The translations under genes and the position numbers were made by a program. This document shows, piece by piece, positions 2,927-60,120 of a stretch of 64,000 bases of DNA (positions within the stretch are counted from its first letter, which is position 1; the number at the start of each line of letters is the position of its first letter). The DNA is from Eledone cirrhosa (Eukaryota): the NCBI GenBank assembly GCA_964016885.1, contig OZ024743.1:351540001-351604000 (forward strand), written 5' to 3'. The notes below the pieces were generated by a model. It did no database searches and was not told where the DNA came from. It saw only the letters and a list, made by a program, of their open reading frames with translations.

Positions 2927-2932
<6 letters not shown>

Positions 2933-3565
2933 GGATATGTGTTCCTACACGCACAAGGCGCTAAGGTACACATGTATTGTCCAACCATATGCCAATGTGG
3001 TTCAATGGCAGGTTAATAAATTAACGAGCCAGAACATATATAATGAAGGTTTAGCAAATATCTTATTTGCTAAACCTTCATTATATATGTTCTGGCTCGT
3101 TAATTTATTAACCTGCCATTGAACCACATTGGCATATGGTTGGACAATACATGTGTCCCTTAGCGCCTTGTGCGTGTAGGAACACATATCCTATTATTAC
3201 TATTCTCCTCTATGTTGAGAAAAATTTGGTCGTTCTGACTGCTGCTAGTTATAGCAGTAGCCATCTGACCTCTCTGCCTCTGCCTTTATCTTTACACTCG
3301 GCCCTTGAAAAAATTGATTCCACTTCATTTACTCTCATCTCGGGAACAATTTTGAATAGCGCCAGTTCGTAATTTGAATTCGAGAATTTTATATTCTCCG
3401 AATGAAAAGAACCTTCTGACGAGATTCTTTCTTTGCAACGAAGGCCGTATGGACTCCGTTTATTTTTGAGAATCGAAACCGACTCGGTAAAGTACCATGG
3501 TAAGTACAGTTAATTTTTTAAAATTTATTTTGAAACTTTATCTTATTTGCTAAACTTTCATTATA
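2927..3565 (+). mobile_element. Non-coding HHR element, ~480-bp monomer with terminal redundancy and a 5' fold-back (retrozyme-like)
   Basis: Palindrome 2927-3196; TCTTATTTGCTAAAC recurs at 3061 and 3541; (TA)n on both sides. Confidence 0.7.
3413..3492 (+). ncRNA. Type I hammerhead ribozyme
   Basis: CTT-CTGACGA-GATTCT..AGAATC-GAAA CCGA C TCGG TA-AAG. Confidence 0.8.
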
Positions 3566-6519: not shown

Positions 6520-6566
<47 letters not shown>

Positions 6567-6571
<5 letters not shown>

Positions 6572-7642
6572 TATGTACACGTACATACATATATGTATAC
6601 AGACGTACAGTAGTATGTATATATATATACATACACGCACACATATATATATGTACGTATGGATTCACCGAACATTTATTATGATGCTCGGTGTGTTTGT
6701 AAACAAACATCCCGTATTAAGCCGTAGTGTCCAGCAACCATCGTTGCTCGTTTGTTCAACAGTGACAAAGGAACGCTGTACTAGTTTCAAGTTTATTAGC
6801 TATCGTCAGCAACGTATACCTTCCTGCCAGATTGTTGAACGTATATACTTACCTTATGCATATTAACGGCTGAGTAACCCAAGTTGCATATCGAGTGGGT
6901 TAATCGGCCGGGTGCACCGAAAACGATAAACGGAAAAAATGAAACGAAATTTCATTTCCCACTCTTAGTACGGTGGTTGCTGGATGGTTGCTGGACACTA
7001 CGGCTTAATACGGGATGTTTGTTTACAAACACACCGAGCATTATAATAAATGTTCGGTGAATCCATACGTACATATATATGTGTGCGTGTATGTATATAT
7101 ATATATACATACTACTGTACGTCTGTATACATATATGTATGTACGTGTACATACTTATATTTAAGTAACAGTCGTACTAAGAGTGGGAAATGAAATTTCG
7201 TTTTATTTTTTCCGTTTATCGTTTTCGGTGCACCCGGCCGATTAACCCACTCGATATGCAAATTGGGTTACTCAGCCGTTAATAATCATAAGGTAAGTAT
7301 ATACGTTCAACAATCTGGCAGGAAGGTATACGTTGCTGACGATAGCTAATAAGCTTGAAACTAGTACAGCGTTCCTTTGTCAGTGTTGAACAAACGAGCA
7401 ACGATGGTTGCTGGACACTACGGCTTAATACGGGATGTTTGTTTACAAACACACCGAGCATTATAATAAATGTTCGGTGAATCCATACGTACATATATAT
7501 ATATATGTGTGCTTGTATGTATATATATATACATACTACTGTACGTCTGTATACATATATGTATGTACGTGTACATACTTATATTTAAGTAACAGCCGTA
7601 CTAAGAGTGGGAAATGAAATTTGGTTTCATTTTTTCCGTTTA
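6567..7642 (+). mobile_element. Non-coding HHR element: ~1.6 tandem copies of a 420-bp monomer plus one inverted monomer (retrozyme-like)
   Basis: GATGGTTGCTGGACAC at 6983 and 7403; 6567-6972 is the inverse of ~7173-7583; TA-flanked. Confidence 0.78.
7331..7371 (+). ncRNA. Minimal hammerhead ribozyme (inverted copy at 6774-6814)
   Basis: CGTTG-CTGACGA-tAGCT aata AGCTt-GAAA CTAG TA-CAGCG. Confidence 0.85.
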
Positions 7643-7836
7643 TATATATATATATAATAAAAAAGAAGATTTTAGCTCTACATGGATGAATACAATAAAT
7701 GTAATCTGAGTTTTTCGAATATTAATAATAACATTCGATTTTTTTGTAATTATGCAAACAAGCCTCAATTTTATAGCCATGTCAGTAGAATGAACCCTTC
7801 ATTCATTCTTGCTCTTGTGTTGGCATGTGATCAGAA

Positions 7837-7880: not shown

Positions 7881-8488
7881 CTCACTGTTCACCTGCCAAA
7901 CTGTCAGAACTAGTGAAAATATATGCTATTTTCAAAATTACAGTGACTGATCGGCCTGATTTGCATATTAGCAGACTGGCTGATCAGTCAGATCTGCATA
8001 TTAGCAGATCTGAGTCTGGAACTAGCTGTTGAAACGGCAAGAGCTCAGCCGTCTGGGTCCTAATTTTTTATAATATATACATGTGCATTACTTATGCACT
8101 ACATTGTGTTTCAAGTAATAATGATATTTTTACCATTCTCTTAGCTATAGACAATCTATCAATTTCTGTACTCTATGTGTTATAACTAACTGAAATCATA
8201 CTTATAAATATCACATTTATATATGCATACATATGTGAGTGAATACAGGTGGTTATGTGTATGCAAATAATTGTCTGTAGGAAAGTCATTCTGAGAAGAA
8301 ACAACAATTTTCGTTTATTTCTTAATAGTATCATCTACTTTGAAGTATAAAAAGGTTTCGTAGCAACTCTGTGAACTGGTCGGTGGCACAATTTAACTGC
8401 ATCTACTGAAAGTCATTTCTTGGCCAGATTTTCAAAGCCTCTTGACGTTTCTATTTTCATCTTTTCTCTTAATTGCATTCCCCTTTAA

Positions 8489-11400
8489 CCCTTTAGCATT
8501 TAAACCGGTCGTATCCGGCCAGAATTCTCTCACCTCTTTCTGCTAAAACCGGCTGTAACCGGCCGCTTATACTTATGTTAAGGTATTGTTCTCAAAATAA
8601 ATAATATCAAAATCTCATAGATTCGATATTTTATGAGATTTTAGTGGGTTGGTCATTGGGTTATTTACTCCGGTAAATACCATTGCATGCCAACTACTAA
8701 TTTAATTCGAAGGAAGATATAGAAGAATGTTATATGATTTTTCCTGGTTAGAATTAGCTCTCTACATTCAACGTAACAAAATGAAACATGACGAATATCT
8801 CAAACGAGTATCAATAACAGTTTGCATTTTTATTGTAGTGTGTGCATTACATATTGGTAATAAAACATACCTTGTGAAGTAATAGAATTGTAATCCTTCT
8901 CCCGATTGCCAACCAATGTGCAAACCATATTGGCGAATATGGTTGACACCAGTTCTATAGAACAAATTGCTGCCTCTGCGGACAGAATTATGGAATTTTC
9001 TAGGGAACCTACCTCGGCTGATTCGGTCATTGCCTCTTCTATTCTTAAAAAACAGCCTGTCTCACCTAGTGAGGAAGCCATGTTGCGAGCTATTGACGGG
9101 TTAACATGTCAAGTAGCTAAACTGTGTCGTGATCGAGCGCCACCTAGAGTTCACGAAGTCGGTCTTTTTCTTCTCATCGACGTACCAACTCCCCAGCCAA
9201 TAGTTCTTCTTTGTGTTGGTACCATGCGCGTTTCCGTGATAAGGCACATCATTGTATCAAGCCCTGCTCTTTGGGGGCATCGGAAAACTAAGTTTGGATA
9301 TTCTGGGCACGGCAGACCTCTCCTTTAACATTTCACCTTATCGTGCTTTCTTCATCAGAGACCGAGTCTCAAACAAGTCATCCATGGCCGACACAGGATC
9401 AAGCTGCAGTATTTGGCCCTTACGGTTCAGCTCTACCAAGCCAACTTTTTCCGGCATTTCTTTGTATGCAGTGAACCAGTCTCCTGTAAAAACCTATGAA
9501 CAAATATCTGTATCATTGGACCTAGCTTTGCGTCGAGATTTTAAATGTATTTTCGTCATTGCCGACCTACCTGATCCTATTCTCGGTGCGGATTTCTTAC
9601 ACCACTATTCACTTTTAGTAGATGTCAGGAAACAGAAACCTGTGGATAGTACCACATCCTTATCTACGCCTACTCGTAAATCTACTGCTCTGCTGTCAGT
9701 CCGTCATTTTTTGTGACTGCTGCTGGAAACCAGTTTCATGCACTCCTTACTTCGTTTCCCAAGTTAACGGATACGTCATTTAATCCTACCCAGGCAGGTC
9801 ACTCGACTCAACACTTCATTATAACGACTGGTCCACCTGTTTTCTCTCGTCCACGGAGGTTGGCTCCGGATAGGCTAAAAAAAGCCCGAGGCGAGTTCGA
9901 GCACATGCTCCAGCTCGGTCTTATACGACCTTCCACCAGCCCATGGGCATCTCCACTGCACTTGGCTCGAAAGGGTGAGGCGGATTTTAGACCGGTAGGA
10001 GATTACCGAAGACTTAACGCTATCACCACACCTGATCGTTATCCTTTACCCAACTTACAGGATTTTTCATCCGTTCCTCATGGATGCACGATATTTTCCA
10101 AAGTAGATCTAGTAAGTGGATTCCACCAGATACCCATGAATCCAGAGGATATACCAAAGACAGCCGTGACCACCTCCTTTGGTTCGTTTGAATTCCTGTC
10201 CGTGCCTTTTTGCTTGCGGAATGCCTCGAGTACGTTCCAGCGTTTTATCGATGAAGTAATGCGTGGATTGGATTTCGTGTTTGCTTATGTGGATGACCTC
10301 CTGATAGCCAGCGTCACAGCTGAACATCATCAACATCATCAACAACATCTATCTCAGTTATTTCAACGTCTTCAATCGTACCAGGTCAGAATCAACCCAG
10401 CTAAATGTGTGTTTGGTACAGCTTCACTGGAATTCCTAGGACATCTGATAGATTCAGAAGGCATTCGACCTCTGCCATCTAAGGTGGAAGCAATTCAGCG
10501 AATTGCACCCCCCACCTCATTGGGGCAGTTTCATCCCTAACTGTGCAGACAAGTTGTTTCCCTTGACACAGTTTTTAAAGGCTGCGAAAAAGAAAGATGC
10601 TCCCATTTCACTTTCTGCCGATGATTTGCGATCTTTTGAATCCGTCAAGTCCGAAATAGCTAAAGTTTCCTTCCTGGCGCAAAAGGTTGCGAACACGAGG
10701 CTATCCTTAACTGTCGATGCATCCAACCATGCTGTCGGAGCAGTCTTGCAACATACAATCAACCACCAGTTTCAACCACTGGCGTTTTTCTCACGCCAAC
10801 TTAAACCAGCAGAGCAACGTTACAGTACTTTTGACAGAGAGTTTTTAACAATTTATCTTACTGTGAGACACTTCCACCATCTTCTTGAAGGTCGGGAGTT
10901 CACGGTATTCACAGACCATAAACCACTCACATTCGCTCTTCAATCCAAGTCCGACATATACTCTCCGAGGGTATACAGGCATTTGGATTTCATCTCCCAG
11001 TACACCAGTGACATTCGTCATATAGCTGGAGATGCCAACGTACCCGCGGACGCACTGTCTCAACTCACTGTGTGCTCCCTTGCGTCTCCTGCACATATTG
11101 ATTTGGTTGCCATTGCGACTGACCAACCTTCTTTGGATTCTCTGGATACTTCTTCTTCTACCCAGTTTTCCTGCTGTAAATTTGAATATTTACCTCTTCC
11201 GTCTGCTGAAGGGAAAATTCTTTGCGACATTTCTACCGGCTCACCCAGACCACTTGTTCCAGATTGTCATCAGCGTACCATTTATGATGTACTTCATTCC
11301 TTGTCGCATCCCGGCATAGCTGCCACCGGGAAGTTCATCACGGCCCGATTCTTCTGGCCTAACATGCGTCGTTTAATCACCGGTTGGGCACGTTCTTGTT

Positions 11401-13319
11401 TGCAGTGTTAGCGCTCTAAGGTTCAACAGCATGTTCGCGCTTCTCTTGGTAAATTCAGCCCGCCGGACGTTCGTTTCCGTCACATTCACATGGATATTGT
11501 TGGTCCATGGCCCGTTAGTCGTGGGTTCACATATATATTGACCTGTATCGATCGTTTCTCTCGGTGGCCTGAAGCCATACCCCTAGTGGATATAACAGCC
11601 GAGTCCGTTGCCCGAGTTTTCATTTCCAATTGGGTTGCTCGCTTTGGTGTTCCTTCTAAAATAACCACGGATCGGGGACGCCAGTTCGGGGCTTCCTTAT
11701 TTCGTGAAATATCACGACTTTTGGGTGCTTATCACATTCATACGACCAGCTATCACCCAGCCTCCAACGGAATGGGGGAGAGGTTTCACAGACAGTTGAA
11801 AGCTGCACTCCGCGCTACTCCTGATCCGCAACGTTGGACCGAATTTTTGCCAATCGTGCTTCTTGGTTGTCGTTCTGCCGTTAAGACAGATTTGGGTTTC
11901 TCCTCAGCTGAACTTCTTTACGGTACCCCCTTGACACTTCCCGGTCAAATGCTAGCACCGGTTGATTCATCGCATCTCGATCCAACATCATATGTCACCA
12001 GGATTCGTTCTTACTTCTCGGATCTTCCACCAATGAACCCTCGTGACCAGTCTATTTCTTCTGCTGTTCCATCGGACATCTCTACGTGGACACACATTTT
12101 TATACGGAATGATTCCGTCAAGGGACCGCTTACGTCACCCTATAATGAACCTTTTCGTGTGCTTTCGCACACACCAAAACATTTCACAGTGGCTGTCAAT
12201 GGTCGAAAAGAGGGCTTTCTCTGAAAGTCTCATTATAATGCCTGACACACCTCGTACATTTACTCCCACACCAACACCTTCACCTCCACCGCAAACACCA
12301 CATACCACCACACAACCTTATGTCACACGAGGTGGCAGAACAGTAAAATGGCCACGTAAATTGTCAAAAACTATATACATTTAACCCCTGATGGCATTAA
12401 CAAACTCTTTTCAGGTTCAGATAGAATTAGTGTCAGAAAAGTCTGTACACTGGTGACGCATGAACTATTTGATTTTGAAGAAACTTTGAACTTACCATTG
12501 AGCATTAATTTTTCTCTCTCCTTTATGTTAACTTTGAGTTATCAGTTGTTGTATTTACATTTTTCTGCATCATCCTTGTGCAGCAAAAAAGATTTTTCTT
12601 TGTAAAATGCATTTACTTGTTTTGTGCCTTTTTGCTATTTGCTTCAGTTGCGAGCTCGTGTTTTATCATGCATTATCTTGTACCTCTGCTCCTCATTTCT
12701 TACGGGTTCTCGCTACAATGACTTTCGGTTGGTTATTCGACTTCTCGTCTGAGAGGGGAGTCTTGTAGCGCTCTCTAGATAAAGGGAAGTAGCTAGAGTT
12801 ACTTCCTGTAGAATTTCTAGAACATTCCTTGGTCTTCAGTTCTATGTATTATAAAAGAAAGAGCAAAGTTCTATGTATTATAAAAGAAAGAGCAAAGGGC
12901 AATCTTCCTCTCTTAGGCAGCAAGCTCTTGAACTGACCTCACCGAGCACAAATATGTTAAGCTTTTTCCAATCCTATCTTGCATTTCAGGATTACAATTT
13001 TATTATTTCACAAGGTATGTTTTATTACCAATATGTAATGCACGCACTACAATAAAAATGCAAACTGTTATTGATACTCGTTTGAGATATTCGTCATGTT
13101 TCACTTTGTTACGTTGAATGTAGAGAGCTAATTCTAACCAGGAAAAATCATATAAAATTCTTTTATATCTTCCTTCGAATTAAATTAGTGGTTGGCATGC
13201 AATGGTATTTACCGGAGTAAATAACCCAATGACCAACCCACTAAAAGATAATTATGTGAGGTAAAGTGTTTACCGTGAAAATATAATAGAAAATATAGAG
13301 CAATGTAAATGCTAAAGGG
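8489..13319. mobile_element. TTAA-flanked piggyBac-type MITE (8489-8638 + 13247-13319) split by a Gypsy insertion
   Basis: TTAA-CCCTTTAGCATTTA ... TAAATGCTAAAGGG-TTAA. Confidence 0.75.
8639..13246 (+). mobile_element. Degenerate Ty3/Gypsy LTR retrotransposon: gag end, PR, RT, RH, IN; 3' LTR 12764-13246; inverted half-LTR 8639-8897
   Basis: DTGS protease, YVDD RT, VDAS RNase H, HHCC + DDE integrase, GPY/F-like motif; frameshifts and stops; PPT GAGAGGGGAG at 12751-12760 followed by TGTAG. Confidence 0.93.

Positions 13320-13589: not shown

Positions 13590-60120
<46,531 letters not shown>

Follow-up and report, generated by a model that had tools for sequence, protein, structure and literature searches.

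Layout of the insertion

The window analysed here is a stretch of 64 kb of genomic DNA. Close to its left end, between two (TA)n tracts, it contains an insertion built from a monomer of about 420 bp that is present in both orientations. The component features are the following.

6523–6569 (no strand): left (TA)n tract of 47 nt, on the target side of the inverted arm
6570–6973 (minus): inverted arm, which crosses the unit junction and the hammerhead, is without the tail of about 60 nt at its 3' end, and carries the rare allele T7268
6773–6815 (minus): hammerhead motif of the inverted arm, from the motif scan, in which a stem II pair is disrupted by a private change (6792)
6974–6984 (plus): 11-nt duplication of the sense-arm 5' end, read from the sequence at the head-to-head junction
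6983–7219 (plus): 5'-truncated upstream copy, 0.57 unit including the tail, which makes the partial tandem; 95% identical to 7403–7643
7220–7643 (plus): one full unit of 424 nt, 37% GC; the junction 7219/7220 is bridged by contigs of the public runs X1, X5 and X6
7330–7372 (plus): predicted type I hammerhead core, from a relaxed motif scan and folding; predicted cut 7366/7367, extended stem I 7305–7391
7486–7584 (plus): internal TA-rich, self-complementary segment; its end, site B, falls within the loop of a hairpin (6 bp, predicted, 7576–7591)
7585–7643 (plus): tail of about 60 nt between sites B and A, with a predicted 10-bp hairpin (7611–7633)
7641–7656 (no strand): right (TA)n tract of 16 nt

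The sense part (6983–7643, plus strand) measures 661 nt, or 1.57 tandem units. Its overlapping portions, 6983–7219 and 7403–7643, are 95% identical at a spacing of 420–424, with four substitutions and two microsatellite indels in 237 nt, in agreement with the original prediction of a tandem of about 1.6 units. The inverted arm (6570–6973, minus strand) is the reverse complement of unit positions 7172 to about 7580–7583, is 97% identical (402/415) over the alignment to 7173–7587, differs from the sense arm by eight substitutions, and reaches 6973 carrying the common family allele. As assembled, the two arms meet head to head at an 11-nt duplication, 6974–6984 being repeated as 6985–6995. Both arms terminate in (TA)n, at sites about 60 nt apart within the unit: the sense arm ends at 7643 (7219 in the upstream copy), hereafter site A, whereas the end of the inverted arm, hereafter site B, corresponds to about 7583 (7159 in the upstream copy) and lies about 60 nt upstream of A. 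It had been proposed that the inverted arm is almost one unit long and stops at another internal TA site, and both points hold. The sense arm has three TA bases in common with the right tract and the inverted arm has five in common with the left tract. The longer internal TA runs of the unit (about 7490–7535, just upstream of the two sites) were skipped by both arms, so TA homology alone is not what selects the sites. No target-site duplication is readable inside the (TA)n flanks of the 6570–7643 element.

Both arms carry T7268; at this position, C is found in 99.5% of the depth in X1 and in all the depth of X4, X5 and X6. The arms are identical, too, at those common polymorphic positions that were compared (7186, 7247, 7333, 7369, 7413 and 7452), and all other differences are private, amounting to about 1% of each copy. 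As this rare allele is common to both arms, they derive from one donor and have aged together. The shared rare allele in combination with private changes also counts against an assembly collapse. Palindromic loci flanked by microsatellites are difficult to assemble, and the layout could in principle be an assembly artefact, or go back to an inversion or duplication that arose locally between TA tracts at a later date. However, three copies are distinguished by private substitutions, five other elements of the window, unrelated in sequence, have the same tail-offset layout, and other runs contain further ends at site B; we therefore consider an artefact or a later rearrangement highly improbable. 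Classical L1 twin priming was also dismissed: it yields non-overlapping segments, whereas the two arms duplicate the same 405 nt.

In the unit (7220–7643) the longest stop-free frame is 62 aa on the plus strand and 99 aa on the minus strand, and no ORF with a reverse transcriptase (RT) and a GIY-YIG endonuclease is present in 6567–7643. No tRNA gene was found, which leaves a tRNA-derived SINE head unsupported. The predicted fold of the unit RNA has a z of -4.8 without the TA-rich part, none of 100 shuffles being equally stable; this is the figure used, as the z of -6.9 of the circle fold is inflated by the TA-rich part. A read-through transcript of 6570–7583 would fold into a hairpin of about 405 bp, 97% paired, from which small RNAs might arise or which might be a substrate for editing.

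Elsewhere in the window, an LTR retrotransposon whose direct repeats measure 259 bp (97%) and whose gag-pol frames are broken occupies 8639–13246, and a related fragment lies at 18262–19589. Exon pieces of a sodium:neurotransmitter symporter were found on the minus strand at 49854–50048 and 23280–23498 (Pfam SNF, E 4e-5 and 8e-6, below cut-off). Judged from these transporter exons, the locus is of animal type; the focal element is situated some 16 kb past the more C-terminal exon piece.

The predicted hammerhead ribozyme

In the hammerhead predicted at 7330–7372, stem I has 6 bp and is continued by further helices over 7305–7391 (z -2.9 for a region of 106 nt), stem II consists of 4 bp over a U-U mismatch, and a single A-U pair makes up stem III, the 4-nt loop that it closes being palindromic. 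The one-base-pair stem III with its palindromic loop, previously placed at 7331–7371, was recovered by the motif scan and folding. A search of the window with Rfam gave no hit at gathering score and no hammerhead family among 89 weak hits; local low-complexity hits of the miRNA type, all below gathering score, were dismissed as composition effects. The minimum-energy folds do not contain the hammerhead core. Since Rfam is silent on the hammerhead, its assignment depends on the motif scan, on the folds and on variation within the family.

This variation was read from 39 variant entries listed for four runs. Within the motif, N7 (7340) and loop 2 (7350) vary, as does the nucleotide of the predicted cleavage (7366, at about 5% in X1). 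One stem I pair varies on both sides, T at 7333 being replaced by A or G and G at 7369 by T. The core CUGA, GA, GAAA and U positions are free of variants among the same 39 entries. The variant sites of the hammerhead are too few for a statistical test, and their phase is visible in a single X6 contig.

By its short, non-coding, low-GC, head-to-tail monomer (420–424 nt, 37% GC) and by the type I hammerhead motif in its repeat unit, found by motif scan and folding, the focal element belongs to the non-LTR retrozymes, or non-autonomous Penelope-like elements (PLEs). Non-LTR retrozymes are described as tandem hammerhead monomers of about 170–400 nt that give rise to circular RNAs and for which PLE enzymes have been proposed as movers (Cervera and de la Pena 2020, PMC7229834). 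The focal element resembles the metazoan members of that account in having a non-coding monomer near this size range (350–390 bp in mussel) with a GC content below 45%, a head-to-tail tandem arrangement, one type I hammerhead per unit and a highly self-paired RNA, here a predicted one. It differs from them by its inverted copy, its tail and its (TA)n target; the words 'inverted', 'target site' and 'microsatellite' are absent from the main text of that paper. The 1-bp stem III with a palindromic tetraloop is like that of the axolotl hammerhead HHR_Amex1, and the U-U at the base of stem II like that of HHR_Amex2. As described there, axolotl hammerheads with either of these weak features, which are treated separately, cleave well only as dimers (PMC7229834); by comparison, the predicted focal ribozyme combines both weak features in one.

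The focal locus has one hammerhead per strand, and therefore could not itself release a monomer; it is a daughter copy. Two consecutive hammerhead-bearing units, by which an 'active' copy is defined in the text of a recent preprint (Li, Clavereau and Pollet 2026, 10.64898/2026.07.22.740005), are not present.

The relaxed scan returned 13 matches at 12 distinct hammerhead-like sites in the 64 kb, a count made without a shuffle control, and none of these sites was reported by Rfam. Eight of the 12 have long stem II regions and a palindromic 6-nt loop III, and several form mirror-image pairs. One type I hammerhead-like motif, at 7883–7834 on the minus strand, has a stem I of 8 bp, with closing helices that are longer (z -2.9); it lies 190 nt to the right of the focal element and has no sequence kinship with it.

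Recurrent ends in family copies and in the PLEs of the window

Public runs were searched with positions 7113–7485, the longest TA runs of the unit lying mostly outside that stretch. Part of the query was contained in 20 of the 24 entries listed, from 16 studies, none recorded as RNA. The contigs compared numbered 11,164 in X1, 144 in X4, 45 in X5 and 3 in X6 (X16–X20, a small share, were left out), and the family is thus very abundant, with 11,164 contigs in one run. Between 9 and 82% of the sampled words of the unit were present in runs under 16 organism labels and in one aquatic metagenome, as would be found for a family that either has been conserved within a group of species or has passed between hosts.

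Loose ends were examined in the best 20 of 230 entries, six of which came from X1. Among those six, the sole TA-type loose end was 7219, that is site A, with 48 contigs, joint best support and a consensus TA repeat. Site B was absent from these six; among the 20, ends at 7159–7163 were found in one contig of X4 (TA repeat), three of X5 and one of X6, a total support of five contigs in three runs. Site A is a well-supported family end, and site B has thinner support. The X1 loose ends at 7264, 7303, 7394 and 7419 (twice) were rejected as insertion ends and read as diverged element sequence or subfamily branch points. Summed contig depth drops across sites B and A in X1, X4 and X5; depth being a poor measure, this drop was not counted.

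The original prediction described the two arms as different circular permutations, primed on a circular or tandem RNA, and named fixed ends as the observation that would speak against this. Fixed ends are largely what was observed among the entries listed (A in 48 X1 contigs, B in five contigs); as the ends recur at the same sites in other copies, free permutations pointing to a circle are not supported. In its strongest form, this model supposes that reverse transcriptase enters a circular RNA at any TA-like site and so produces a range of circular permutations. It would account for the cyclically continuous family sequence, in which contigs of X1, X5 and X6 bridge both the hammerhead and the junction of units, and for the fact that both arms cross an uncut hammerhead while the overlapping tandem parts differ by private changes only; moreover, retrozyme circles have been shown in mussel, coral and axolotl (as described in PMC7229834). 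However, ends recur at A (48 contigs) and at B, and no other TA-type end was found in the best 20 of 230 entries, for a query that mostly leaves out the longest TA runs; longer internal TA runs were skipped by both arms; and the same offset is seen on ORF-bearing PLEs. Diverged relatives also stop at the same hairpin. Free entry into a circle is consequently quite unlikely.

The relatives in question lie in the right part of the window.

50078–50526 (minus): diverged relative, 68–76%, a partial tandem from which the hammerhead is deleted and which ends after the tail hairpin
56724–56877 (plus): diverged 5'-truncated relative, which starts 1–15 nt after the position of the predicted cut
57685–57771 (plus): diverged 3' fragment, which ends after the tail hairpin

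Related sequence had been noticed at about 50260–50335 and 56760–56835; similarity to the unit was found over 50172–50318 (75.5%) and 56724–56877 (76.6%), and the piece at 57685–57771 is a third one. In the relatives at 50.1 kb and 57.7 kb (68–76%), similarity stops just past the same tail hairpin.

The junction 7219/7220 is bridged by contigs in three of the four runs (X1, X5 and X6); therefore, the family sequence is cyclically continuous and this junction is not newly made at each insertion. This bears on the possibility that the 420-bp unit is the pLTR of an ORF-bearing element, and the focal locus a severely 5'-truncated autonomous PLE. PLE pLTRs do have type I hammerheads and tails, and the window contains ORF-bearing PLEs with the same layout, one of them with a 357-bp internal tandem (41.6–45 kb). 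However, the unit runs into itself across 7219/7220 in both arms and in three runs, and it lacks a long frame, whereas published pLTRs often overlap the start of the ORF. In addition, the best 20 of 230 entries show no common loose end leading into long foreign sequence: none of the loose ends listed connects the unit, across many contigs, to a long stretch of unrelated sequence, and in X1 the proportion that continues into unlike sequence is 0. We consider such a truncation unlikely.

The window is rich in PLEs, and ORFs ending in GIY-YIG-type motifs are present in it at 4.1–5.7, 17–18, 23.8–25.8, 27.3–28.7, 37.5–39.2 and 43–43.7 kb. Pfam, applied to 10 frames, detected GIY-YIG in two and RVT_1 in one; the ORF at 27272–28744 has both RT (E 6.5e-4) and GIY-YIG (E 1.9e-4), both below Pfam cut-offs, and its element has a 60-nt tail like the focal one. 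The unit has no similarity to the six ORF-bearing PLE loci (best E 0.03) or to five other element loci of the window.

Eleven head-to-head structures were listed in the window, of which nine were tabulated and two skipped. In six of the nine, the focal one included, the tail-less arm ends in TA at an internal site, the tails measuring 60, 60, 90, about 95, 142 and 367 nt; of the other three, one has an end outside TA and the arms of two end equally. Ends are also shared by separate insertions of other families (1392, 30830 and 32156; 28959 and 40851). In eight of the nine TA-ended arms for which a read-through copy exists, 3–7 TA bases are in common with the tract; the nine ends were picked by eye and the null for the focal element omitted its TA-rich segment, which makes the combined P of 7e-6 descriptive only. 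Three of six inner ends fall at most 40 nt after a predicted cut (P about 0.016, post hoc), a hint of linear, cut templates or of stalling at the ribozyme stem.

The PLE at 41633–44966 has inverted arms of 1.3 kb, each with a hammerhead and two tandem 357-bp units, and a tail of about 95 nt. A second ORF-less partial tandem with a hammerhead, at 14400–14935 (unit of about 323 nt, motif at 14771–14816), has an inverted 5' arm and lies between TA tracts. Its arms have the same end site and no tail, its sense arm starts 14 nt after the predicted cut, and a short motif downstream of its ribozyme resembles a motif at the start of the focal sense arm.

Probable mode of insertion

Endonuclease-bearing PLEs are known to insert as partial tandems with an inverted 5'-truncated copy and a tail of 30–40 bp on one end, and some clades prefer (TA)n, as described in Craig et al. 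2021 (PMC8557442) and Arkhipova et al. 2013 (PMC3846280). The focal insertion has the same structure: it is a partial tandem with an inverted 5'-truncated copy, its tail is found on one side only and stops at sites that recur, (TA)n is the target at both ends, and its predicted hammerhead lies near the 3' end. It differs from the PLEs of these accounts in having no ORF and a tail of about 60 nt, not 30–40. Non-autonomous partial-tandem elements, mostly without canonical hammerheads, are described under the name MRC1 in Chlamys (PMC8557442; PMC3846280).

Biochemical results on the purified Anolis Poseidon protein offer a second comparison. As reported in the main account of that work, this protein nicks AT-rich DNA and extends both strands, RT starts at two internal sites in a stem-loop, the tail being the stretch between them, uncut RNA is used, and hammerhead cleavage is unnecessary (Frangieh et al. 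2024, PMC11167929). The focal element likewise has two probable internal RT starts that bound a tail, a probable start in a predicted stem-loop and an AT-rich target, and the use of both strands and of an uncut tandem RNA template would be further points in common. A difference is that the Poseidon start site is not homologous to the cut DNA, whereas the focal ends share 3–5 TA bases with it.

We conclude that the focal locus is probably an ORF-less non-LTR retrozyme of about 420 nt, introduced into (TA)n in one insertion event through the RT and GIY-YIG endonuclease of an autonomous PLE. The two ends are fixed boundaries of a PLE tail, and not a sign of free entry into a circle. Of the originally proposed two priming events at TA microhomology, the two ends at internal TA-matching sites stand, in agreement with the Poseidon results as reported in PMC11167929 and with eight of the nine TA-ended arms, and the proposal came near to the mechanism known for PLEs; TA by itself does not choose the sites.

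The insertion may have proceeded as follows. A PLE enzyme acting in trans would bind a multimeric RNA, either a read-through tandem or a circle, near the tail hairpins 7576–7591 and 7611–7633, and its endonuclease would nick both strands of the self-complementary (TA)n target. The two nicks would then prime reverse transcription at the fixed internal sites A (7643) and B (about 7583), with TA pairing of 3–5 nt. Synthesis of both cDNAs would continue past the unit junction and through the hammerhead, left uncut, and would cease after 661 and about 405 nt, respectively; the two products would be joined head to head with an 11-nt slip.

A variant of this scheme needs one primer only: the PLE enzyme primes at site A alone, the 3' end of the cDNA folds back on itself and copies 7172–7583, and the product is resolved to the other target strand at the TA of site B. 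Such a fold-back would explain why the inverted arm is nested in the sense arm and has the same rare allele, and why the tail is on the longer arm in all three TA-ended, non-hairpin, tailed structures (the focal one, 26698/28959 and 41633/44966). Several elements of the window are near-perfect hairpins with loops of 0–4 nt; however, two cDNAs that both reach one RNA 5' end also give symmetric hairpins. A 7-bp inverted complement is present near both inner ends, as in 541 of 14,885 random pairs (3.6%, post hoc), but the junction does not use this stem cleanly and the loop would be 190 nt long. Self-priming has been proposed for palindromes of rotifer PLEs (in the account of PMC3846280), whereas in vitro one and the same pair of start sites on the RNA serves for the extension of both strands (as reported in PMC11167929). 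Taken as a whole, fold-back is a possible but rather unlikely course. Within the preferred explanation, mobilization by a PLE enzyme, two primers are mildly favoured and fold-back keeps an appreciable weight; similarly, a linear tandem is the mildly favoured template, a circle being a credible second choice.

A more specific form of this mobilization, which we propose tentatively and consider doubtful, is that the circular RNA made by the ribozyme is the direct template of a dimeric Penelope-type enzyme, which would nick both (TA)n strands and reverse transcribe more than one turn from two fixed, TA-matching entry points. If true, the family would preserve in the genome, at high copy number, a record of circRNA retrotransposition and would supply a ready substrate for testing it in vitro, and PLE priming would here be homology-assisted, unlike the homology-free start of Poseidon.

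The enzyme that moves animal retrozymes has so far been argued from co-occurrence and sequence kinship. Thus, the dependence of animal retrozymes on PLEs was deduced in vertebrates from co-occurrence and pLTR similarity (Li, Clavereau and Pollet 2026, 10.64898/2026.07.22.740005); our conclusion is the same, and no insertion-junction evidence was found in the text of that preprint. An ORF-less hammerhead monomer with the full PLE footprint, that is, a (TA)n target, an inverted 5' copy and a tail present on one end, at sites that recur, provides junction-level support for PLE mobilization. No paper with junction evidence for retrozymes was found in the literature searched, which excluded most subscription journals and transposable element databases; supplements may show such junctions. 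The layout is known PLE behaviour, to which are added a junction-level footprint, a longer tail and an apparent TA-assisted priming, and the result should be useful, not surprising, to the specialist.

Near-perfect hairpin insertions are found in the window at 1517–1630, 2930–3194, 14036–14162, 16302–16350, 29952–30597, 30829–31185 and 40510–40578; those at 1517–1630 and 30829–31185 belong to one family and have in common the short palindrome at which they turn. After merging, the long (TA)n tracts number 36, of which 24 lie at most 20 nt from a mapped element end, some of these ends having been chosen by their TA flanks; PLE insertion and the growth of TA tracts may be coupled in this genome.
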